NCBI GenBank assembly: GCA_947451425.1
Contig: CANGAC010000001.1
Coordinates: 482-64,481, forward strand
Direction: 5' to 3'
DNA length: 64,000 nt
Origin: Bacteriovoracaceae bacterium
Lineage (GTDB): Bacteria; Bdellovibrionota; Bacteriovoracia; Bacteriovoracales; Bacteriovoracaceae
Part shown: positions 3,471 to 63,783 of the stretch, piece after piece
Layout of the letters: each line of letters opens with the position of its first letter
Position numbering within the stretch: position 1 is the stretch's first letter
Notes under the pieces: generated by a model
What the model was told of the DNA's origin: nothing
Databases searched by the model: none
What the model saw: the letters and a program-made list of their open reading frames with translations, nothing else
Made by a program: the position numbers and the translations under genes

Positions 3471-3502
3471 TTGACCCATTTTGGTAGTGTGGTACACTAC
3501 CA
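3471..3502 (+). promoter_or_regulatory. Putative sigma70 promoter with operator palindrome of the BrnT/A-like TA module
   Basis: TTGACC (3471) ... TACACT (3493); perfect inverted repeat TGGTAGTGT-ggt-ACACTACCA (3482-3502) ending at ATG 3502. Confidence 0.6.
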
Positions 3503-3837
3503 TGGAGTTTGGATTGGCGAAGTTCATACCGGATTTTTGGTTACTGGAGTTTTTGAAGAGATCACATCATCTGGAATTGGATTTTTGGAACACTAATAAA
3601 ATCTTTCAAAAGCATGGGATCACCGAAGATCAGGTTGAGTCTTGTTTTGCAGACATCACGATAGTTCCACTGGGACTTCAAACGGAACCCTTGAGTAATG
3701 AGAAGCGATACGGAGTATTGGCCAAAGATAGATCAGGAAAAATTTTATTCATTAGTTTTACTGTGAGGAATGAAAAGATCCGTCCAATCAGTTGTCGAGT
3801 AGCGAATCAAAAAGAGAGGTTTATGTATGGCAGGTAG
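3502..3837 (+). CDS. BrnT-family ribonuclease toxin (type II TA)
   Basis: 'KHGIT..E..F', 'EKRY..L', 'FTVRNEKIRPISCR.AN.KER..Y' match the BrnT/DUF497 pattern; start placed at ATG 3502. Confidence 0.8.
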   Translation: MEFGLAKFIPDFWLLEFLKRSHHLELDFWNTNKIFQKHGITEDQVESCFADITIVPLGLQTEPLSNEKRYGVLAKDRSGKILFISFTVRNEKIRPISCRVANQKERFMYGR

Positions 3838-8096: not shown

Positions 8097-9413
8097 ATGA
8101 AGCTTAGCATTATCGGTACAGGATACGTGGGACTTGTGACGGGAACTTGTTTTGCAGAAATGGGATACGACGTCACTTGTATCGACTTAGACGCGGCCAA
8201 AGTTGAAAGAATGAAAAAGGGCGAGTGCCCAATTTTCGAACCTGGACTTGAGCCCCTCATGCAATCCAATTTTGAAGAAAAGCGCCTGAGCTTCTCAACG
8301 AGCTATGACTCCTGCAAAACTGCCGACGCTATTTTCCTCGCAGTCGGAACTCCTTCATCAGACGACGGCCAGGCCGATCTCAAATATGTCTTCGGAGCTT
8401 GTGATTCGATCGCACCTTACCTCAAAGAAGGCGCCATCGTTGTTGTGAAATCCACCGTCCCAGTTGGAACCGGAAACAAAGTTCGCGAACACCTCAAATC
8501 TAAAACCACAAAAAAATTCTACGTCGTAAATAATCCTGAGTTCCTCAAAGAAGGTTCTGCAGTTGAAGATTTCATGAAGCCTGAACGGATCATCATCGGC
8601 TGTCTTGAAGATGCTGCCGGCAAAACAATTGAAGATCTTTATGAGCCATTCAATCGTCAGGTTAAGCGCACGATCCGCATGAGTAACATCTCTGCGGAGA
8701 TGACGAAGTACGCGGCGAACTGTTTCCTCGCGACTAAGATCTCGTTCATGAACGAAGTTGCTCGTCTCTGCGATACAGTGGGCGCGGACGTTGAAGAAGT
8801 TCGTCACGGAATTTCTACCGATTCACGTATCGGTTCTCAGTTCCTTTATCCAGGTCCAGGTTACGGCGGATCTTGCTTCCCGAAAGATGTGAAGGCGCTC
8901 GTCTACACTGCTCGTGAGCACGGCCTTCGCTTCGAGATCGTTGAAGCCGTTGAGTCTGTGAACAAAGAGCAGAAGAAGTATCTTTTCACGAAAGTTCTTA
9001 AGCATTTCAAGAACGACCTCAAAGGCAAAACATTTGTACTCTGGGGAGTTGCTTTCAAAGCAAATACTGATGATATCCGCGAAACTCCAGCTATCGATAC
9101 AGTCCTCGCTCTCCACGAAGCCGGAGCTAAAGTCCGTTTCCACGATCCAGCTGCTGCCGATCACTTTGAGCAATTCATGGTGAAGAAAGGCATCCCTGTT
9201 GATCAGTTCGAGAATAAGTACGACGCCCTTAACGGTGCCGATGGCCTTCTCGTTATGACTGAGTGGAAGCAGTACCGCGCACCTGATTTCGACGAAATCA
9301 AATCACGCCTGAAGACACCTGTGATCTTCGATGGCCGGAATCTTTATAATACGAAGAAGGTTCTGGAGCAGGGGTTTGATTACTATGCGATTGGGAAGGC
9401 GATAAAAGCTTAG
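8097..9413 (+). CDS. ugd: UDP-glucose 6-dehydrogenase
   Basis: 'IIGTGYVG', 'NPEFLKEG', 'GPGYGGSCFPKD', 'FKANTDDIRE'. Confidence 0.97.
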   Translation: MKLSIIGTGYVGLVTGTCFAEMGYDVTCIDLDAAKVERMKKGECPIFEPGLEPLMQSNFEEKRLSFSTSYDSCKTADAIFLAVGTPSSDDGQADLKYVFGACDSIAPYLKEGAIVVVKSTVPVGTGNKVREHLKSKTTKKFYVVNNPEFLKEGSAVEDFMKPERIIIGCLEDAAGKTIEDLYEPFNRQVKRTIRMSNISAEMTKYAANCFLATKISFMNEVARLCDTVGADVEEVRHGISTDSRIGSQFLYPGPGYGGSCFPKDVKALVYTAREHGLRFEIVEAVESVNKEQKKYLFTKVLKHFKNDLKGKTFVLWGVAFKANTDDIRETPAIDTVLALHEAGAKVRFHDPAAADHFEQFMVKKGIPVDQFENKYDALNGADGLLVMTEWKQYRAPDFDEIKSRLKTPVIFDGRNLYNTKKVLEQGFDYYAIGKAIKA

Positions 9414-9496
9414 TTGACACTTTTGGTTAAACTAAATTTTTCAATTCTTTATTAAAAATACATCATCCTCAATAACTTAACTGTTATCCTAAGGTA

Positions 9497-9802
9497 ATGA
9501 TTGTACTGATTGATGATGATAAGTTAATTCGACTTTCGTGGACAATACAAGCCAAGTCCAAAAACTTGCCCATCGCTTGCTTTCAATCAATAAAAGAGTT
9601 TCTTCTTCAAAAAGATTCATTCTCTTTCGACACTCAAATTTATATTGATTCTGACTTGGGTGGTGAAAAGGGAGAAGTTGAGGCTGAATTAATTTTCAAA
9701 CTTGGTTTTATTAACATCACTCTATGTACCGGATTTATTGAATTGGACATTTCTCAATATCCTTGGATTTCAAAAAAAATTTCCAAAAGGCCTCCATTCT
9801 GA
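9497..9802 (+). CDS. Stand-alone response-regulator receiver domain
   Basis: 'IVLIDDD' acidic pocket, 'IYIDSDL' phospho-Asp, 'LCTG', terminal 'SKRPPF'; no output domain. Confidence 0.8.
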   Translation: MIVLIDDDKLIRLSWTIQAKSKNLPIACFQSIKEFLLQKDSFSFDTQIYIDSDLGGEKGEVEAELIFKLGFINITLCTGFIELDISQYPWISKKISKRPPF

Positions 9803-10905
9803 AACTTATAGCATTTTTTATTTTGATATCTAATATCCTCATCTTGAAAGCCTTCTGTGCTACTGGGCAAATTGGGTATGGATCATCAACCTCCTCTCTT
9901 ACGTCAAAGAACCAAGAAAACATTTTCATGGCATTTGAATTTGGACTTATTGAAAGTTTAGGCGAAGAAAGAACTACAAAGATATTAGTTAGAAATCAGG
10001 ATAATTCGGGCTCTAAAATTGGTGCTATTAAAGTTGCGAATGAATTATTAAATCAAAATGTCGCTGCACTTTTTGGGTTCTCTGGAAGTCATGATTCAGT
10101 ATTGGTTGGGAAGTTAGTTTCTGGGAAAAATATTTTAACAATCGTACCAGGGTCAATGCATAACGACTTAGCAAGTTTTGGGGATGCTTTCTATACAACT
10201 GGCCATTCAATGGATTTAGAAGTTCAGAATACAATTGAGTTCATTGATAGAACATTCCCTAAGGCAAGAGGCGCGGTAATAATTAATCGTTATGCAGTTG
10301 CCTCTTCCAGTGCTGAGAAAATATTAATCGAAAAGCATTTAAATAACCCAAGAATAAGTTTGAAATTAATGTATCTCAACAAAGATTTAAATTTAGACGA
10401 AGTAGATCTCAAGTTTCTGAGAGATGGCAAATTTAATTTCTTGTATTTTACGGCTTACCCTGAGGCAATGGTAAACTTTGCTAATCAATTGGAGAAATCG
10501 AATATCGATATTCCCGTTGTGGCAGCGTCGAGTTGGGGACTAGGAGATTCCGATCTTTTAAGAAGATTCATTGTAAATAAAAAATCTCCACTGTATTTCT
10601 CCACGGATTGGATTATTCACAGTAAAGAATCTAAGCATTTTACGAATATTTTCAAGCTTAAATTTGGAAAAGAACCGTCACCAGAAAATGCTCTTGGGTA
10701 TGACCTTGGGAAAATAGTTGGTGAAACAATCAGTAGAGTGGAAGGTAGTATGACTAGAGCTTCTGTTTTAAAGGCGTTCAAAAAAAATCTTTGTTTTGAG
10801 CGCTTGTCTGTTGGGCGTTTATGCTTCATGGAGACAGGTGGTCATTCCAGTATAAAACCCGTATTTTACCAATTCAAAAGTGATAAAAGCCTTCGGATTC
10901 AATGA
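9763..10905 (+). CDS. Periplasmic binding protein, LivK/branched-chain amino acid type (start uncertain)
   Basis: N-terminal hydrophobic stretch; 'A..LL.QNVAALFG..GS', 'F...FGKEP...ALGYD' typical of type I PBP fold. Confidence 0.8.
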   Translation: MDFKKNFQKASILKLIAFFILISNILILKAFCATGQIGYGSSTSSLTSKNQENIFMAFEFGLIESLGEERTTKILVRNQDNSGSKIGAIKVANELLNQNVAALFGFSGSHDSVLVGKLVSGKNILTIVPGSMHNDLASFGDAFYTTGHSMDLEVQNTIEFIDRTFPKARGAVIINRYAVASSSAEKILIEKHLNNPRISLKLMYLNKDLNLDEVDLKFLRDGKFNFLYFTAYPEAMVNFANQLEKSNIDIPVVAASSWGLGDSDLLRRFIVNKKSPLYFSTDWIIHSKESKHFTNIFKLKFGKEPSPENALGYDLGKIVGETISRVEGSMTRASVLKAFKKNLCFERLSVGRLCFMETGGHSSIKPVFYQFKSDKSLRIQ

Positions 10906-12185
10906 GAGTAATGACTAAGGTTAAATACACCCTTTTAAAAAAGCTCTTGTTGATGCAAGTTACTGTTGTTCTTCTCGGAGCAATTGCGATCTCATCAACA
11001 TTTCTTCTGTCTTCATTTATGATTGCGAGAAGCGATCTTGAAAATGAAAAAAAACAGATTGCCTCATATCTATTATTAAGGGCAGATGAGTGGACTGCAT
11101 GGCACCAAGTAGGAATGACGAACTTATTATCTGAAGAGATGAATGAGTTTCAGAATCAAAATAGATTAAAGTCGATCAGATTTGTTTCTTCGCAAGATCC
11201 TGTGTCGAAAAAGCCTAATGAGCAAGATTTAGTTATTCAGATTCTGCCAGATCTTTGGATCCAAGTCGAACTAGAGAAGCAAAATCTTCTTCAGCTATTC
11301 TGGAAACAAAAAAACGTCGTTTATTCAATGTTGATACTTACTTTTTTTTTCTTGTCTGTTTCTTACTTCTCTTTCGTTTATTTAAGGAAGAAAGTTCACC
11401 AACCGATAGTTCAGCTAATTGATTCAATGAAAGGCAACATGAGCGGAGTAAGAGACGTCTCTAAAAGAATTATTGCAACCGACGAAATGAGAGTTTTCGT
11501 AGATGAAATTAGCTCTCTATTTGAAAGAATAAAAACAATGGAAAGAACTTCAGCGTTGGGCGTAATTACTGCACAAGTTACTCATGACTTAATGTCTCCG
11601 ATTTCCTCGCTGGAAGTTTTTCTTGAGAATAGCTCCATTTTGGATGATGAGAAGGAGCTGCTTAGTCTTTCTGTTTCAAGAATTAAAAATATAGCTGCTG
11701 ACTTATTGGAAAGAAATAGGAATGTGAATGGAAGGTTTTCAGGGATTAAAAAGAATATTGATGAACTTATTGTTTTAAAAAACGCTGAGTTCTCAAAGTG
11801 CAACTTTAATATTATTTGTGAAATTGACGGACTTACAGGGGAAGAAGCAATTCCACTTTCTGGTCTTGAGTTCCAGAGGATGGTTTCAAATCTTATTAAT
11901 AATGCATATGAGTCTTATGAGGGGAAAGGCGGAGTGGTGAAGATCAAAATATCCAAAATCGAAAGCAGAATTAATATAAGGATTATAGATTTTGGGAAAG
12001 GTATGGCGAAAGAAATATTAGCCGATATAGGCAACTTTGGAACATCCTTTGGTAAAGCAAAGGGTTCCGGGATCGGTATTTATAGTGCCAAGGAGTTAGT
12101 TAATTCAATTGGAGGGGAGTTGAATATAACTTCAATTAGAGGCGATGGGACTGAAATTTCAATTAGTTTACCTTATCAAATTTAA
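10902..12185 (+). CDS. Membrane sensor histidine kinase
   Basis: Two TMs; H-box 'VTHDLMSP', N-box 'NLINNAYES', G1 'DFGKGM', G2 'GSGIG'; ATGA overlap with PBP gene. Confidence 0.92.
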   Translation: MRVMTKVKYTLLKKLLLMQVTVVLLGAIAISSTFLLSSFMIARSDLENEKKQIASYLLLRADEWTAWHQVGMTNLLSEEMNEFQNQNRLKSIRFVSSQDPVSKKPNEQDLVIQILPDLWIQVELEKQNLLQLFWKQKNVVYSMLILTFFFLSVSYFSFVYLRKKVHQPIVQLIDSMKGNMSGVRDVSKRIIATDEMRVFVDEISSLFERIKTMERTSALGVITAQVTHDLMSPISSLEVFLENSSILDDEKELLSLSVSRIKNIAADLLERNRNVNGRFSGIKKNIDELIVLKNAEFSKCNFNIICEIDGLTGEEAIPLSGLEFQRMVSNLINNAYESYEGKGGVVKIKISKIESRINIRIIDFGKGMAKEILADIGNFGTSFGKAKGSGIGIYSAKELVNSIGGELNITSIRGDGTEISISLPYQI

Positions 12186-13173
12186 CTAATTGATAATATC
12201 CAACGTTCGAATCTACATTCGCAAATTTGAACCCAGCCTGCTCCAAAAGTTTTTGTAATCTCTTAAGAGTGAATTGTGAAGAGTTGTGATTTGCTGCCAT
12301 TAGTAAATTGAAAATGCAGGTAAAGGTCGGCGAAGTTTCACCTTCATCTAATAAGCACTCATGAATATATAATGAACATTTATCTTCAGAGTCTCTATGT
12401 ATATTCATTAAGATTTTTAAACATTCGTCTTCGGGCCAATCATGAAGGATATTACTTAAAAGATAAATATTTCCTTTAGGAATTGAATCAAAAAAGTTGC
12501 CTGGTATTAATGAAATCCTTTCAGTTATAAGAGTCCTTCTGATAATCTCCTTAGTTGTCTCGAGAACCTCAGGTAAATCAAAAACCTCGACAGTAATATG
12601 AGAATTCATATTGCATAATTCAATAGCCCACGCCCCCGATCCCCCTCCAATATCAATTAGTTTCTTATGATTTGATATCGAACTATTTTGAGCATGATAA
12701 TTGGCTGGATAAGCCATCATGGAGTCCATCACATATGTAAAAGCTTTTGCAGTTTCTTTATCTATCGAGCCTGCCTGCCACATGTTGGTAATTACTTGAC
12801 CTCTGTACTCCAAAGCTGCTGTGCCTTTCTGCAATGCTTGCTTAAACCTTTGGAGGATTTCTGGATGCGCCTTCCTTAAAAATTCATTTCCTTGATAATA
12901 ACGGCTTTGTTTTAACAGGAAGTTTTTCGATTTTTCGTTTAAGTAATATATATCTGATTCACATTTCAAAAGATTAAGGCTTTCGAGCGCTTTCAATAAT
13001 GCACTTGAGACATGCCTATTTAAATTCAAAGATAAGGCGAGTAACTCTGACGATGAAGGTTCGTCCTTTAGAAATTCAAATATCCCTAGATCTACCGCAC
13101 ATGAAATTGAGGCAAATTTTGCTGAAGCAATATAATAGTTTTCAAATTCTAGGTAATCTTCCGTGTTTGACAT
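12163..13173 (-). CDS. SAM-dependent small-molecule O-/N-methyltransferase (Methyltransf_2; PhzM/ASMT-like)
   Basis: N-terminal dimerisation domain 'AVDLGIFEFL'; 'LIDIGGGSG', 'FDLPEV', 'GNFF', 'ILHDW'; start placed at ATG 13173. Confidence 0.9.
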   Translation of the reverse strand: MSNTEDYLEFENYYIASAKFASISCAVDLGIFEFLKDEPSSSELLALSLNLNRHVSSALLKALESLNLLKCESDIYYLNEKSKNFLLKQSRYYQGNEFLRKAHPEILQRFKQALQKGTAALEYRGQVITNMWQAGSIDKETAKAFTYVMDSMMAYPANYHAQNSSISNHKKLIDIGGGSGAWAIELCNMNSHITVEVFDLPEVLETTKEIIRRTLITERISLIPGNFFDSIPKGNIYLLSNILHDWPEDECLKILMNIHRDSEDKCSLYIHECLLDEGETSPTFTCIFNLLMAANHNSSQFTLKRLQKLLEQAGFKFANVDSNVGYYQLVKFDKVN

Positions 13174-13217
13174 ACTATTATAATATCCCAACGGGTTAAA
13201 TTTTTGGTTTAAATTTT

Positions 13218-14150
13218 ATGAAAAAATGGATTTCGTCTAGACCTTTTGCATGCTTCATGATTTTTGCAATTCTGATAGCGGCAAGGGATTCTTTCTCACA
13301 GCTTCTTCTTGATCAAAATATAGATCCCTTTTTCATGGTTTTCTGCTTCTTTTCAATAACATCCGTACTGGCGTTTGCTTACGGCAAAATTTTCAAACTA
13401 AAAACTATTCCATTGGCGGAGAATTTCAAAGAGAAGGCTCTCCTAGGGGTAATAACTTGTAGTGCATTTCTATTAACACTTTTTGGAATAAAATTAATTG
13501 GTGCTTCGATTTTTAGTTTGGTTGAGCATTGCTTGATACCTATCTCTACATTTTTCCTAGCCGTTCATTTGTTAAAAGATAATGCAAGTAAATCAATGTA
13601 CGTTGGAATTATCATTTCAGTTGTTAGTGTTTTACTTTTCCTATTCGCCATTAATGATTACGAATTTATTGTTTTTAAAAAGGATTGGATTGCAGGGATT
13701 TTAATTGCTGTACTCTGCTCTTTATTAACTTCTATATCTTCAATATTTCAAAAGAAGTTGCTTTTAAAGAATCATGAGCCCTACCAGGTTTTGCTAGCTC
13801 GCTTTACTTTACCCTCTGCTATGGTATTTGTTTTCCTTTTACTAAAAGGTGTTGAGATTCCTGGATTTGTAAATGTACTGAAGATCGTAATAATCAGTAT
13901 TTTCTTTTTTTCTTTGCCTCTTTTGCTCTTGCTTCAAGGATTTGTCAGATCCTCTATGGCAAGGTTTTCGATTTTTAATATCCTAATTCCTTCATTTACT
14001 TTTCTTTTTAACTCTCTGTTGTTTGATAATGAATTTTCTAAATGGTCGAATCGATGGGTTTTACTTGGAACAGCAGGAATACTTGTTGGTCATGTTATTT
14101 TTGAATGGGAAGGACTTAAGTCATTCTTGAGCAGATCTAAAAGTGGGTAG
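13218..14150 (+). CDS. EamA/DMT-family transporter
   Basis: About 10 TMs in two repeats, 310 aa; 'P..TFFLA..LLKD'. Confidence 0.75.
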   Translation: MKKWISSRPFACFMIFAILIAARDSFSQLLLDQNIDPFFMVFCFFSITSVLAFAYGKIFKLKTIPLAENFKEKALLGVITCSAFLLTLFGIKLIGASIFSLVEHCLIPISTFFLAVHLLKDNASKSMYVGIIISVVSVLLFLFAINDYEFIVFKKDWIAGILIAVLCSLLTSISSIFQKKLLLKNHEPYQVLLARFTLPSAMVFVFLLLKGVEIPGFVNVLKIVIISIFFFSLPLLLLLQGFVRSSMARFSIFNILIPSFTFLFNSLLFDNEFSKWSNRWVLLGTAGILVGHVIFEWEGLKSFLSRSKSG

Positions 14151-14151
14151 C

Positions 14152-14958
14152 ATGAATAATTTAGTTTTTGAGACATCTAGCTTAGAATCTAAAGCTCTCG
14201 AAGCTTTATTCAATGATGAGATCTACGTGTTGGTAGTTAGAAATTACGTTCGAGGTGAGTTGAGTCGAAAATATGGAGAAATTATTTTTTCCTCTGACGA
14301 ACTAGAGAAATATTATTATGAAGTATCAGATTCCGGCGAAAGGAAGAGTCTTTTCTTAGGAGTAAGTCGGTACGGAGTTTCCTTTAGTACAACTTTTGGA
14401 AGACCAGAAAACAGTCCTGAAAAACAAAAATATTATATTTCCGCTCTTCCAAATATAACTCGTATTCGTGAATTATTTGATCCTTACCTGTCTCCCATTG
14501 ATAAGTTGAGATTAGACTTAGATGAACTTTATGTTCATGGTGCGAATATAGCTCAGTTTGAAAACAAGAAAATGTTTTGTGGAATTGCACGAGTTACACA
14601 TTGTGATTTAGATCTTCAAGAAAGAAATCCTCATGTGGACTCTCTTCCCCCTGAATTTTTTCTTCAAAGGCAATTTTCGGCAAATATTTATTTATCTACT
14701 CCACCTGTTGGAGGTGATCTTATCGTTTACCCAATGAAACCTTTATCAGCGCAGGAAGTAGATGACTTTGAAGCAAATCAAAAACTTTGGTCATCAAAAT
14801 TGCCGGAAGGAATCAGAATAAAACCAAATAATGGTGACCTAATACTTATCAATACACGTAGGCCGCACGCAGTCACAAAGTTTACAGATGGTACTCGTGT
14901 TTCTTTACAGACATTTATTGGTGTAAATGAAAACAGACCCTTGCAACTTTGGTGTTAA
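14152..14958 (+). CDS. 2-oxoglutarate/Fe(II)-dependent dioxygenase (hydroxylase type)
   Basis: HxD 'PHVDS', distal His 'RPHAV', Arg 'GTRVS', 'NIYL..P..GGDL', 'GDLILIN'. Confidence 0.85.
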   Translation: MNNLVFETSSLESKALEALFNDEIYVLVVRNYVRGELSRKYGEIIFSSDELEKYYYEVSDSGERKSLFLGVSRYGVSFSTTFGRPENSPEKQKYYISALPNITRIRELFDPYLSPIDKLRLDLDELYVHGANIAQFENKKMFCGIARVTHCDLDLQERNPHVDSLPPEFFLQRQFSANIYLSTPPVGGDLIVYPMKPLSAQEVDDFEANQKLWSSKLPEGIRIKPNNGDLILINTRRPHAVTKFTDGTRVSLQTFIGVNENRPLQLWC

Positions 14959-15020
14959 CACTAAATTTTTAAGGAGCTTATTTTTTTGATCTTATAATGA
15001 AAGATTAGTAGCCTTTTTTT

Positions 15021-16385
15021 ATGAAAATCTTAGTCTTACTTCTGATTACTTCAATTGCATTTGCCCAAAGTCGCCAAGAGCGCGCCACCACCGCCGCTGA
15101 CGCTTTCTTAAATCTCAACTTCTACTACAAGGGTAGAGGGATGTCGGTTTCTCCGGATCTCATCAAGCTCTACGATTCGCTTAATAAAATGGGTCTCAGC
15201 ACGGGTGAACTAGGTCCGCTCTATCAGCGCTGGGGAATGGTTGTTCAGAAGAGCGGTAATGTTCGTGGGCTTTTCAGTGAGCCGTATGAAGGCATGCAGG
15301 TGGGAGTGCTTGGATGTGTTGCTTGTCACGGTGGTAAGGCCGCTGGTCAGTACATCGTGGGTCTCGGAAATAAAAATATCGACGTTGGTCAGATTGGATC
15401 TGATGCAGTTCTGGCCATGAAAATGTGGGGAGCGCTCCCTCACCGGAATCCGAAGTTTAAAGAACTCCATGAGCGCGCTCTGAGCTTTACGAAAGGCCTT
15501 TCGGATCCAAAGATTACGAACCACACTCAAGGCTTAGTTCCTACAAGCTTCATTCGCTCTTGGTTTTATAAAGTTAAGGGTGAACCGATTCCGCAGGATT
15601 TCCTGAAAGGGCTCGTGAAAGTTCCACATCTCTGGGGATACGGCGAGAAAAAGAAATCTGGGTTAACCTGGGGTGGGGAAGGAAATGGAGACCTCGGGGG
15701 CTGGATTCCTGCGATTGAACTCTCTGCGGGTCAATCAGTTGAGAACGTTCGCGAATACTTCGGCGAAAAAGTTAAACACACAGAAGAAATTTTTGAATCC
15801 TTTCTTCCTCCGAAATATCCTTTTGCAGTTGATGCAACGAAAGCGGCAAATGGTGAAAAGATTTTCGTGAAATCCTGTCAGGGCTGTCACGGAACATACA
15901 ATCGCGATTTCGAAGGGCTTCCGATATACGATTCTCCGAAACTCGTTCCATTAAGAGTTGTGAAGACTGATTCAGATCGCCTGGACGCCATGAATGATGA
16001 TCTCATTCAGCACATCGATACCAATCCTCTCAACGAATACATTCAAGTCTGGAAACATGCTGAGCCTGGATATGTAGCACCGAAATTGTGGGGAATTTGG
16101 GCCCGATTCCCGTACCTGCATAACATGTCAGTGCCGACCGTTTACGATCTCCTGAGCGATCCTGCGACTCGTCCTAAGCAGTTCTCAATGAAGAACGCGG
16201 GAGAAAGAGATCGCTTTGATGAAGTAAGACTTGGTCTCACAATCATCAAGAAGGATTCCTGGAAGAGACGTCTTTACGATACGACTCGCAAAGGGAGTTC
16301 GAATCAGGGGCATTACTTCGAGTCGTTTAAAACATTTACTCATGAGAATAAACTCGAGCTTATCGAGTATCTGAAGACGCTTTAA
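15021..16385 (+). CDS. Exported dihaem c-type cytochrome, RoxA/MauG-like
   Basis: Signal peptide; CVACH and CQGCH; 'YVAPKLWGIWARFPYLHNMSVPT'; 'SNQGH', 'LIEYLKTL'. Confidence 0.85.
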   Translation: MKILVLLLITSIAFAQSRQERATTAADAFLNLNFYYKGRGMSVSPDLIKLYDSLNKMGLSTGELGPLYQRWGMVVQKSGNVRGLFSEPYEGMQVGVLGCVACHGGKAAGQYIVGLGNKNIDVGQIGSDAVLAMKMWGALPHRNPKFKELHERALSFTKGLSDPKITNHTQGLVPTSFIRSWFYKVKGEPIPQDFLKGLVKVPHLWGYGEKKKSGLTWGGEGNGDLGGWIPAIELSAGQSVENVREYFGEKVKHTEEIFESFLPPKYPFAVDATKAANGEKIFVKSCQGCHGTYNRDFEGLPIYDSPKLVPLRVVKTDSDRLDAMNDDLIQHIDTNPLNEYIQVWKHAEPGYVAPKLWGIWARFPYLHNMSVPTVYDLLSDPATRPKQFSMKNAGERDRFDEVRLGLTIIKKDSWKRRLYDTTRKGSSNQGHYFESFKTFTHENKLELIEYLKTL

Positions 16386-16696
16386 GCTGCCAAAGCATGC
16401 AATAAGGCAGCGACAGTTGAAAGTTCAGGGTTAAAAGTTTTCTTGGGATCGATTATATCGTATAGAGTTCTACGACCTAAGCCCGATTTTTTTGCGAGAT
16501 TCATCTTATTTACCGTCATAAGATGAACAATTAAAACGTCTCTAAATGATTCTAGATCGTTCATCATTAAGCACTCAACCAGCGCCTGACTAACAATTTT
16601 AATGTCTTTAAAATCAGGATCGGAGAAAGGAATAATTTCCTTCAATAATACTGGTTTTGATTTTTTGAGCTTTTTTGATGTCTTTGTCTTGGCCAT
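16382..16696 (-). CDS. HTH antitoxin (HI1420/HigA-like addiction module antidote)
   Basis: 'LAKKSGLGRRTLY.....NPELSTV..LL.AL'; GGAGG RBS before ATG 16696. Confidence 0.8.
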   Translation of the reverse strand: MAKTKTSKKLKKSKPVLLKEIIPFSDPDFKDIKIVSQALVECLMMNDLESFRDVLIVHLMTVNKMNLAKKSGLGRRTLYDIIDPKKTFNPELSTVAALLHALAA

Positions 16697-16922
16697 TCTT
16701 ATTTCCTCCGAACAAAACAACTATAATTAAATCTTTCCAATGGAATGCATAAACTCTATTTCCATTAAGCCATCGTAATTCAATCAAGCCATCAAAACGC
16801 TTATGGTCTCCAAAGTGAGCAATGGCCATTCGCTGGACTCGAGCGAAGATTATTTTTTGAGTACTTACAGGATGGCTAGAAAGCCATTCATCAAATTCAA
16901 CAGTCCACTGAAGTCTGAAAAC
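16614..16922 (-). CDS. RelE-like toxin (HI1419/DUF891 family); start codon problematic
   Basis: 'T.EFDEWL', 'HFGDHK....LIELR...G.RVY', 'LFGGNK..QDKDIKKA'. Confidence 0.75.
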   Translation of the reverse strand, partial: VFRLQWTVEFDEWLSSHPVSTQKIIFARVQRMAIAHFGDHKRFDGLIELRWLNGNRVYAFHWKDLIIVVLFGGNKNGQDKDIKKAQKIKTSIIEGNYSFLRS

Positions 16923-16928
16923 CTGCTC

Positions 16929-16957
16929 ATTGTACGGTATACCGCTCATTTTTTCAA
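16929..16957 (-). promoter_or_regulatory. sigma70 promoter of the TA operon with operator palindrome
   Basis: TTGAAA-N17-TACAAT on minus strand; palindrome CGGTATACCG (16935-16944) in the spacer. Confidence 0.7.
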
Positions 16958-17042
16958 GCTCCCCAAATGGTGTGACAAGTCTTGGAATAAACGTCCTTAC
17001 CCGGCTAGAATGGCTTATTCGAATCAATTGGGAGCCCATAAG

Positions 17043-18734
17043 ATGTATTTTTCAGTTAGTTTGTCAGTCGTAATGGCCGTTTTCACATTTAGCGCTTTCG
17101 CTGCTACAGACCTCACCACCATCGCAGAAAAATCCGGCTGGAAACAAACCGGTCGCGCAGACGAAACTGAACGCCTCTGTCACGACTTCCAGAAATCCTA
17201 TCCATCACGAGTGAAATGCAAGGCCCTTGGAAAGACTCCCGAAGGACGAACTCTTTATTCAATGATCGTGGGGAAGCTCACTGATCCGGTCGTCTGGGTT
17301 CAGGCAGGAATTCACGCCGGAGAGATCGACGGGAAGGACGCAACGTTCTGGCTTCTGAAAGATATTCTGACAAAGAAAATTCAACCTGATCCACTGGCCG
17401 GGCTTTGCCTCGTCTTCATTCCCATCATGAACCTTGATGGGCACGAACGGTTTGCGAAGTATAATCGCCCAAATCAAGTTGGGCCGGAAGAGATGGGATG
17501 GCGGGTGACATCGCAGAACTATAATCTCAATCGCGATTACGTGAAGGTGGATGCACCTGAGATGAGGATGATCACGACCTGGTGGCGGAAAGTGAATCCG
17601 GTTCTGAGTCTGGATCTTCATGTGACAGATGGAGCTCAGTTTCAGCCGCAGGTTGGACTTGTCGTGCTTCCCACGACTGCTTTTGGGAATTCAAACTTTC
17701 ATAAGGCGGGATCTGCCTTCGAAACTGCACTCGTTGAGAAAATGAAGGCTCGCGGCCAGATGGCCCTGCCATTTTACCCAAGCTTTGAAGAAGAGGATGA
17801 TCCGAAAACAGGATTTTCACGATACGTTTCCAATCCGCGCTTCTCGCAAAGTTACTGGTATCACCAGGACCGCTTAGGAATGCTGGTGGAGTCTCACTCA
17901 TGGAAAGACTACGCCAATCGTGTGAAAACTCATTACGACACCGTTCTGTCGTCCCTGGAGGTTGCGCAGGAGCAATCGAAAGACTGGCGAATGTTCGGCA
18001 AATATAGTGTCAACGGCAGCAAGGTGGCTCTTGAGTTCAAGCACACTGATAAGCACACCATGATCGATTTTCCAGGCTACGAGTACAAGAAGATCAAGTC
18101 TCCTATCTCAGGAGTTGAGGTTATCGAATACGATCCTTCGAAAAAACAGGTTTGGAAAGTTCCGTTCTATGAGGAGCTCTCTCCCTCACTTGTAGTGACG
18201 GCACCGAAAACGGGTTACCTCATCCAGCCTTCGGAAGCGGCGATCATTTTGCCGATCCTGGATGTTCATGGAATCAAATACTCGAAAGCAAAGATCCTTC
18301 CACCGAATCCTCAGGTTTTCCGGGCGACTAAGACAGAGTTCAATCCAAAATCTCTTGAAGGCCACCACACACTAAAAGTGGAAGGGGAGTGGAATGAGGA
18401 GAAAGTGGATTTTCCGGCGGGCATGATTTTCGTTTCCATCAGCCAGCGTTCGCCGAAATTCATCCTTCATCTGTTTGAGCCGAAGGCACAGGACTCATTT
18501 TTGTCATGGGGATTCTTCAACCGATATTTCGAGCAGAAAGAGTACATGGAAAACTATGTCGCTCATCAAGTAGGGCTTGAAATGTTGAAAGACCCAAAAA
18601 TTAAAAAAGAATTTGAAGAAAAGATGAAAGATAAGGCATTCGCTGACAATTCAGAAGAACGGTATAACTTCTTTTATAGAAAACATCCTTCATGGGATGT
18701 GAAGTTTAACCGTTATCCTGTCTATAAGTTTTAA
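17043..18734 (+). CDS. Exported M14 zinc carboxypeptidase
   Basis: Signal peptide from ATG 17043; 'GIHAGE', 'NLNRD', 'DLH' zinc motifs. Confidence 0.9.
   Translation: MYFSVSLSVVMAVFTFSAFAATDLTTIAEKSGWKQTGRADETERLCHDFQKSYPSRVKCKALGKTPEGRTLYSMIVGKLTDPVVWVQAGIHAGEIDGKDATFWLLKDILTKKIQPDPLAGLCLVFIPIMNLDGHERFAKYNRPNQVGPEEMGWRVTSQNYNLNRDYVKVDAPEMRMITTWWRKVNPVLSLDLHVTDGAQFQPQVGLVVLPTTAFGNSNFHKAGSAFETALVEKMKARGQMALPFYPSFEEEDDPKTGFSRYVSNPRFSQSYWYHQDRLGMLVESHSWKDYANRVKTHYDTVLSSLEVAQEQSKDWRMFGKYSVNGSKVALEFKHTDKHTMIDFPGYEYKKIKSPISGVEVIEYDPSKKQVWKVPFYEELSPSLVVTAPKTGYLIQPSEAAIILPILDVHGIKYSKAKILPPNPQVFRATKTEFNPKSLEGHHTLKVEGEWNEEKVDFPAGMIFVSISQRSPKFILHLFEPKAQDSFLSWGFFNRYFEQKEYMENYVAHQVGLEMLKDPKIKKEFEEKMKDKAFADNSEERYNFFYRKHPSWDVKFNRYPVYKF

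Positions 18735-63706: not shown

Positions 63707-63783
<77 letters not shown>

Follow-up and report, generated by a model that had tools for sequence, protein, structure and literature searches.

An AT-rich gene island of a Bacteriovoracaceae bacterium as a candidate circuit for making, exporting and sensing a chemical signal

The DNA considered here (the window) is a stretch of 64,000 nucleotides (nt) from a Bacteriovoracaceae bacterium of the phylum Bdellovibrionota, and its subject is an AT-rich island of six genes at positions 9414-15020 (Table 1). It is assumed, with a probability of about 60%, that this island makes a signal of its own, probably a hydroxylated and methylated derivative of an aromatic amino acid, which is exported and then sensed by the proteins encoded beside its biosynthetic genes. 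Because the same sensor adjoins six other enzyme sets across the phylum, a family of chemical signals between cells of bacterial predators, likely undescribed so far, is indicated, the predatory lifestyle of this host being presumed from its phylum alone. The island has a foreign base composition and intact catalytic motifs, and the pairing of its binding protein with a dedicated kinase recurs throughout the phylum beside interchangeable enzyme cassettes.

An earlier note on this DNA had described six tightly packed AT-rich genes, in which a sensing operon (receiver, LivK-type binding protein, histidine kinase with two transmembrane (TM) segments) converges on a methyltransferase gene and on an EamA transporter gene followed by an oxygenase gene. 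Open reading frame (ORF) calls and a Pfam scan of the window agree with this in coordinates, strands and families. All six ORFs are there, the proteins match PF13458, PF02518, PF00891 with PF08100, PF00892 and PF13640, and the ORFs overlap by 40 nt (receiver/binding protein), 4 nt (binding protein/kinase), 23 nt (kinase/methyltransferase, convergent) and 8 nt (EamA/oxygenase). Neither ATP-binding cassette (ABC) permeases or ATPases, nor nonribosomal peptide or polyketide synthases, nor LuxI/LuxR proteins occur among the six genes by ORF list and Pfam, as the note had also stated. The guanine + cytosine (GC) content is 34.7% against 48.4% for the genome; among 1780 genome segments of 5.5 kb the island is the most AT-rich and alone lies at or below 35.2%, and its sensor and biosynthetic halves are equally low (33.5-35.9%).

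Table 1. Features of the AT-rich island (positions in the window)
Feature	Position	Strand	Remarks
AT-rich island	9414..15020	n/a	34.7% GC; insert at ugd-cytochrome c cargo hotspot
REC single-domain receiver	9497..9802	+	D6-D8/D51/T78/K97 intact; without output domain
Periplasmic LivK-fold (PF13458) binding protein, predicted receptor	9763..10905	+	hydrophobic N-terminal stretch, residues 10-28
2-TM histidine kinase	10902..12185	+	TM 23-41, 143-161; H228; HATPase_c; periplasmic domain of about 100 aa (nt 11025-11327)
Methyltransf_2 methyltransferase, S-adenosylmethionine (SAM)-dependent	12163..13191	-	DIGGGSG at 180, LHDW at 249; likely start ATG 13173
EamA/DMT-family transporter, predicted exporter	13218..14150	+	PF00892
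WelO5-fold 2-oxoglutarate-Fe(II) oxygenase	14143..14958	+	H164-x-D166...H242 + R252; likely start ATG 14152

The binding protein belongs by sequence to a narrow Bdellovibrionota subfamily, the range of which was surveyed inside the phylum: 76 representatives are found at E <= 1e-30, and below that the matches are mostly ordinary LivK proteins or fragments. The family occurs in 15 of the 401 genomes of a phylum sample, and in 5/127, 5/38, 1/20, 2/14 and 7/301 genomes of five classes (overlapping samples). Apart from the island, 28 loci from 24 genomes were examined; pattern scans based on the narrow alignment gave one locus in GTDB contigs and one in JGI metagenomes, the JGI locus (1.3 kb, no context) being left out of the 28. 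At every one of these loci a 2-TM kinase with a homologous periplasmic domain of about 100 aa is encoded in the same cluster, in 26 cases directly downstream of the binding protein. This domain carries the motif W-x-x-W-x-x-L-G-L. Its profile was built with 26 of the loci, and the kinases of the two left out (L022 and L048) score 89 and 67 bits; no other protein in the examined loci scores above 8 bits. The domain was not found in other kinases examined, and in one class it is present in 3 of 96 genomes, which are exactly the carriers of the binding protein (those three are in the profile). Many kinases of the family end in a receiver domain.

The genomic prediction that the binding protein travels with a kinase, and not with a transporter, holds with a dedicated kinase at 28 of 28 loci and with a Liv operon of the genome that has its own LivK directly upstream of its permeases. 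An ABC-transporter role was rejected on the latter ground and because the PF02653 permease is absent in two of five carrier genomes tested (G017, 100% complete, and G377). Linked BPD_transp_2 permeases or ATPases were seen neither in the island nor in the scanned neighbours of the other loci. It has been reported, in the part of PMC11113362 that was available, that of 11 characterised couples of binding protein and kinase, 10 have their genes next to each other, which supports the pairing. As a control, 68 scanned ORFs (of 94) around 13 other kinases of the genome held no binding protein and no EamA, LysE or MFS protein at E <= 1e-12, a strict cut-off that could miss a weak EamA. Several aberrant forms of the sensor were also met. 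A probable insertion sequence interrupts the gene of the binding protein at L048:7993-10330 (G460), the gene seems truncated or frameshifted at L049:2557-3516 (G613), and it is possible that sensing has been lost and the enzymes kept at these two loci. In P0091 (792 aa) an MFS-like membrane protein precedes a family binding protein in one fused chain, and in P0147 (666 aa) the binding protein is half-fused to a hybrid kinase; both may be artefacts of assembly or gene calling.

What was missed by the earlier note is that the island belongs to a larger family, in which the cassettes are interchangeable and some sensors are solo, standing without a cassette. In 20 of the 28 loci an enzyme cassette adjoins the sensor on the same strand; there are six kinds, all differing from the set of the window (neighbour proteins were scanned selectively: 60 proteins, mostly from 125 candidates, plus further targeted scans). 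The commonest contains an ATP-grasp ligase (9 of the 20 loci), accompanied in 7 by a ThiH/HydG-like radical SAM enzyme. Members of this radical SAM family (L010:12591-13946, L037, L038, L044, L049, L079 and L081) share 31-53% identity and always stand beside the ligase; their matches to ThiH/HydG are weak and far under the cut-off, and the family can be described as conserved and uncharacterised. An aromatic amino-acid hydroxylase with Methyltransf_2 and LysE forms the cassette at two loci, the homologous methyltransferase standing alone at a third (L085); the hydroxylase is an extra copy, a longer one being present elsewhere in both genomes. The remaining kinds are a cupin protein with an unassigned protein and usually an enzyme dependent on pyridoxal phosphate (PLP) (4 loci), a halogenase-like protein of the flavin adenine dinucleotide type with EamA and Methyltransf_2 (1 locus), a thiamine pyrophosphate enzyme (2 loci) and a threonine-dehydratase-like gene that interrupts the run from binding protein to kinase (1 locus). 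An EamA, LysE or MFS exporter is encoded in 10 of the 20 cassette loci, and cassette and sensor form one co-directional run in these other genomes.

Co-occurrence of all six genes had been suggested as a check. A sensor half and a biosynthetic half stand together at the 20 loci just described. The combination of the island's oxygenase, binding protein and methyltransferase recurs elsewhere as judged indirectly by contigs of equal size. Their closest homologues (74%, 73% and 65% identity, respectively) all lie on 27,839-bp contigs in other metagenomes, a second such trio lies on 8,613-bp contigs, and an oxygenase/binding-protein pair on contigs of 6,405 and 6,697 bp. The cassette-less sensors L042, L043, L045, L046 and L022 form a well-supported clade, and three of these genomes also have a second, cassette-linked copy. 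Beside one family locus there is a second module (L011:13616-19653, G205) of a DUF4135 protein, an SBP_bac_5 binding protein, a hybrid kinase and an MFS protein; DUF4135, which we take to be the N-terminal part of LanM enzymes, suggests a peptide product.

The strongest hint, at the level of sequence, that receptors match the products of their cassettes comes from the binding-protein tree. The sister group of the window's receptor clade (97/97, starred) consists of the receptors that accompany the cassette with hydroxylase, Methyltransf_2 and LysE. The hydroxylase and exporter of that cassette are unrelated to those of the window, and the methyltransferases are only 25-29% identical over about 170 aa, yet both sets encode the sequence "hydroxylate, methylate, export" as analogous, non-homologous cassettes. 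The predicted pocket motifs are largely split in the same way (GSHD, A-x-A-S and WG against TSHEA, VFS and WT), with partial deviation in L035 and L085. Cassette type requires 6 changes on the tree compared with 8-12 in 1000 shuffles (21 rows), a count in which kin share labels and L085, with its methyltransferase alone, is grouped with the hydroxylase set.

Concerning the sensor proteins, the receiver has no Pfam match yet keeps all catalytic residues. With the receiver at the C-terminus of a related hybrid kinase it shares 46% identity and, by this resemblance, appears to be a free-standing counterpart of that domain. The structure model of the binding protein (predicted local distance difference test, pLDDT, 94) has the LivK fold, the Foldseek comparison with 3td9 giving a TM score of 0.77 at 17% identity. 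The pocket Ser and Tyr of LivK are retained (S109, Y232), and M132 and S256/S257 align to the Thr and Asp of the genome's own LivK (about 22% identity, register approximate). In LivJ-type proteins a Thr and an acidic residue bind the alpha-amino group of the ligand; since the family has replaced these and kept Ser and Tyr, its ligand is probably something other than a plain amino acid. The phospho-His position, H228, is invariant in the kinase alignment. Neither Pfam, in a scan of 27 kinase periplasmic domains, nor PDB gave a sequence match for the periplasmic domain of the kinase; its look-alikes in the Atlas (GAPES4, GAPES3, CHASE8 and sCache, 0.90-0.93) are leads only. Modelling of the complex, another check that had been suggested, gave 0.51 for the binding protein with the kinase domain and 0.00 for the best of three controls; at least 96% of contacts are common to the runs, and the pLDDT of the partner is 72 or more. 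Of 157 solved pairs 116 reach the mark, as do 2 of 215 mismatched pairs. Docking of the binding protein on this domain is weakly supported by the model, because just 18 of the 157 solved pairs, but both mismatches, reach the mark with a score at or below 0.60.

The biosynthetic half allows some prediction of chemistry. Database gene calls use the inner start codons given in Table 1 and yield 336 aa for the methyltransferase and 268 aa for the oxygenase. The SAM motif together with LHDW is typical of phenolic O-methyltransferases, and the best PDB match, a hydroxyindole O-methyltransferase, is generic. The closest solved folds of the oxygenase are WelO5/AmbO5 (Z 23.2, root-mean-square deviation 2.9 over 245 residues) and SadA (Z 17.4, 3.4 over 220), which act on free small molecules according to the available part of PMC8407142. 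By this modelled likeness the oxygenase should hydroxylate a free small molecule; the identity to WelO5 and SadA is just 16-17%, and for this reason their substrates are not transferable. Asp166 of the iron motif is invariant in 23 of 23 aligned homologues and occupies the position of Gly166 in WelO5, so hydroxylation rather than chlorination is predicted. A halogenase reading was rejected because of this residue, there being no H-x-G/A motif to leave room for chloride. Oxygenase homologues without a sensor stand beside a PLP decarboxylase (L149:5664-8565 in G375), are fused to a GNAT domain (L150:6915-8255 in G279) or, in a Yersinia record, stand beside an aminotransferase (L091:4926-7222), contexts that suggest an amine or amino acid as substrate. 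The chemistry of aromatic amino acids is also used by several of the sister cassettes. From the methyltransferase motifs, the oxygenase contexts and these sister cassettes taken together, the most likely substrate is an aromatic amino acid, the corresponding amine or an N-acyl form, which would give a methoxy-aromatic product.

It can be proposed that the oxygenase and methyltransferase would hydroxylate and methylate a small metabolite, and that the EamA protein would export the modified form, which would accumulate. The binding protein would capture it, the ligand being the cassette's own product, and the loaded protein would likely dock on the periplasmic domain of the kinase. Switching of the kinase would alter phosphorylation of the receiver, which would pass the signal to a partner outside the island. 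The outcome would be a likely quorum-type signal; the identity of the ligand, its export, the density dependence and the output are what we infer.

A number of observations weigh against a self-made signal. Eight of the 28 loci have no cassette (two of these are cut by contig ends), and among the 20 with enzymes 7 encode no exporter and 3 more just an unassigned protein with 7-8 TM segments. Among the loci examined, the exact six-gene set stands in the window alone, the match by equal-sized contigs covering the oxygenase, binding protein and methyltransferase. The oxygenase family has four matches in the 401-genome sample, none with a family binding protein nearby. Regarding autoinduction, the promoter scan is at chance level (21 sites against 18.4 +/- 4.2 in shuffled sequence), the accompanying scan found no terminators, and the island genes hold no DNA-binding domain, so that the receiver must act on a partner encoded elsewhere. 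The agreement between cassettes and receptor tree is to be expected from linked transfer alone, and the kinase tree is mostly unresolved and does not recover the grouping of the window with the LysE cassette. Moreover, adjoining binding-protein and kinase genes are not always functionally linked, as the available part of PMC11113362 states.

The most serious competing explanation, although considered unlikely, is that the product of the cassette is an antimetabolite or another bioactive compound, exported and directed against prey or competitors, and that the sensor detects a different cue (precursor, prey or host molecule) and regulates the cassette or behaviour. Small clusters of enzymes with EamA, LysE or MFS proteins are a common layout for amino-acid antimetabolites, MrsABC for 3-methylarginine being an example; a match to TIGR04543 here is weak (E 4e-7) and far under the cut-off. 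The solo sensors at 8 of the 28 loci, the CBASS defence system (cyclic-oligonucleotide-based antiphage signalling) carried at the same site in a relative, and the sigma-54 activators upstream in L085 and L011 would fit as well. A generic cue, however, does not account for the way in which receptor clades and pocket motifs follow the chemistry of the cassettes, most of all where sister receptors stand beside non-homologous hydroxylase and methyltransferase sets, and the loss of Thr and Asp at the amino-binding positions argues against plain amino-acid sensing. More improbable still is a detoxification module, in which an outside compound such as an aromatic metabolite of prey is detected by the sensor, made harmless by the oxygenase and methyltransferase and expelled through EamA. 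Hydroxylation, methylation and efflux are compatible with this, and predation by Bdellovibrio can be inhibited by prey signals (PMC8461301, available part); yet the commonest cassette of the family, with its ATP-grasp ligase and radical SAM enzyme, builds rather than degrades molecules, and the island has no transcription factor to turn detoxification on.

It is very improbable, finally, that the two halves are unrelated cargo stacked at a hotspot, or that the binding protein serves an ABC transporter encoded elsewhere. The interval between ugd and the cytochrome c gene does hold many unrelated cargoes in the genus, the halves are convergent and not one operon, and the genome has Liv permeases. 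Against this, the halves share their low GC content and overlap, homologues of both lie on equal-sized contigs elsewhere, cassette and sensor run co-directionally in other genomes, and the 68 scanned ORFs around the 13 other kinases show no binding protein or exporter of these families at the strict cut-off; the Liv permeases have a LivK of their own, and G017 and G377 carry the family protein without PF02653. At the level of the family this explanation is largely refuted.

As for known systems, the earlier note had not recognised the type of circuit; its architecture does have a precedent in ScrABC of Vibrio parahaemolyticus, where an enzyme makes the signal and a binding protein presents it to the receptor (bioRxiv 10.1101/2024.04.02.587679 and PMC8050422, both in part). 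As in ScrABC, the enzyme, periplasmic binding protein and membrane receptor are encoded together in the island and in the 20 other loci. In contrast, ScrA is an aminotransferase and the island enzymes are PF00891 and PF13640; ScrB is SBP_bac_3 and ScrC a GGDEF/EAL protein (PMC8050422, available part), whereas the island has PF13458 and a HATPase_c histidine kinase with a receiver. A dedicated exporter is a further difference, and the synthase cassette of the island family varies among seven kinds. From its sequence the island would work like ScrABC, yet all three protein families place it outside that system.

The use of a binding protein as the ligand-binding subunit of a sensor kinase is shared with LuxP/LuxQ (autoinducer 2), TorT/TorS, XylFII/LytS and ChvE/VirA, and BasB of Halobacterium is likewise a PF13458 protein, one that serves a chemoreceptor (both after the available part of PMC8050422). 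LuxP, however, is Peripla_BP_4 and LuxQ has the dCache-like PF09308, compared with PF13458 and the domain without Pfam or PDB match in the island; no match to Peripla_BP_4 or PF09308 was found in the window proteins or in the 27 kinase periplasmic domains, which places the island outside LuxPQ. While luxS is unlinked to luxPQ, the cassettes of the island family are linked to the sensor and interchangeable. LivJ/LivK of the HAAT ABC transporters have the same type I fold with the same pocket Ser and Tyr, and differ in having a permease partner instead of a kinase and in the amino-group Thr and Asp. With WelO5-type halogenases the fold is shared and the iron motif differs. The island thus appears, by these comparisons, to fall outside Liv transporters, LuxPQ and WelO5 halogenases alike. 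Neither a description of the sensor/cassette family nor a self-made signal of Bdellovibrionota was found in the literature covered, outside which lay subscription journals and supplements, and the terms "quorum" and "histidine kinase" do not occur in the available parts of two Bdellovibrionota genomics papers (PMC8067016, PMC11656739). What is new is a phylum-wide sensor chassis with swappable mini-pathways, the make-and-sense architecture of the ScrABC type being known already; on the whole the interpretation of the earlier note is partly supported.

A wider hypothesis can be put forward tentatively, at slightly less than even odds. Bdellovibrionota would carry a polymorphic and hitherto undescribed quorum-sensing family in which one chassis (LivK-fold binding protein, dedicated kinase and receiver) is matched to at least seven interchangeable mini-pathways making different amino-acid-derived autoinducers. 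Strain-specific dialects would spread by horizontal transfer, and solo receptors would eavesdrop. Sister receptors would twice have been paired with independently assembled hydroxylase, methyltransferase and exporter sets for the same or a similar methoxy-aromatic signal, and peptide signals would come into the scheme through parallel modules in which YcaO or DUF4135 enzymes accompany peptide-binding proteins. At each family locus a small pathway is encoded together, probably, with a soluble receptor that matches it, which offers a directly testable route to the signals. If the hypothesis is true, autoinducers of several new chemistries and a new type of sensor domain in kinases are to be expected, co-evolution of receptors and signals becomes testable, and the timing or coordination of attack by predators could be partly explained. 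Even if the products are antimetabolites, the cassettes offer mini-pathways that have not yet been mined, among them a natural hydroxylase counterpart of WelO5 and the uncharacterised pair of ThiH/HydG-like radical SAM enzyme and ATP-grasp ligase.

The island is likely to have been acquired horizontally. Its edges are sharp, the left at the stop of ugd (9413) and the right at the start of the cytochrome c gene (15021). Both junctions are bridged by contigs of run X1 (8739-12217 and 12386-18500), bridging that is not independent because X1 is possibly the source sample; run X2, from a separate study, has short identical pieces within the island and in both flanks. With these contigs, an assembly artefact is an unlikely origin. 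The oxygenase has no close match in 36 genomes of the same genus (one distant match, 31% identity), and the binding protein is present in just 4 of 236 other genomes of the family of the window. In relatives the ugd-cytochrome c interval holds changing cargo, such as a lone glycosyltransferase, a CBASS pair, YcaO with a peptide-binding protein, and other modules of binding protein and hybrid kinase. As the cargo varies and the island genes are rare in relatives, we infer a recent arrival at this hotspot; because the interval carries other cargo, no clean empty site was found among the relatives examined. A phage-defence role was rejected, since PADLOC gave no meaningful match for the six genes, only generic 2-oxoglutarate and methyltransferase matches, and no relatives of the oxygenase were found in the viral contigs searched.

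The same hotspot in relatives contains other modules worth recording. The relative with the closest ugd (G218) has a two-gene CBASS at L120:10370-11868, composed of a SMODS cyclase and a Cap15 2TM effector. YcaO with an SBP_bac_5 binding protein adjoins the same cytochrome c gene at L121:1693-3357 (G029) and L124:3407-6864 (G216, with a possible kinase gene), which is possibly a peptide-signal version of the make-and-sense layout. Further AT-rich kinase modules are present at L118:391-6451 (G021), L127:1-3325 (G020), L119:1583-5767 (G214) and L129:149-685 (G220); their contents include gamma-glutamylcyclotransferase with SDR, HAD, an ABC_sub_bind protein and a hybrid kinase, a hydrolase with a kinase and SBP_bac_5, and kinase-receiver genes with the same REC family. 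Within the island, AT-rich stretches of the type GGTTAAA/TGTTAAC...TAAATTTTT are located at 9424-9441 (5' of the receiver gene), 13195-13216 (between the divergent genes) and 14953-14970 (right end). The first and last are an 18-nt imperfect repeat (83%) near both island ends, an excess over chance not being demonstrated, and the stretches may be an operator, an attachment remnant or chance. The only tRNA gene of the window, tRNA-Met at 63707-63783, is distant from the island, and insertion is therefore not tRNA-anchored. Small ORFs at 16382-17039 and 3481-3837 resemble, by eye, what we take to be RelE/HigBA and BrnT toxin-antitoxin genes. The flanking gene at 15021-16385 encodes a di-heme cytochrome c protein, whose matches of the RoxA and peroxidase kinds lie under the cut-off; of 50 other genomes of the genus, 23 have this gene conserved.

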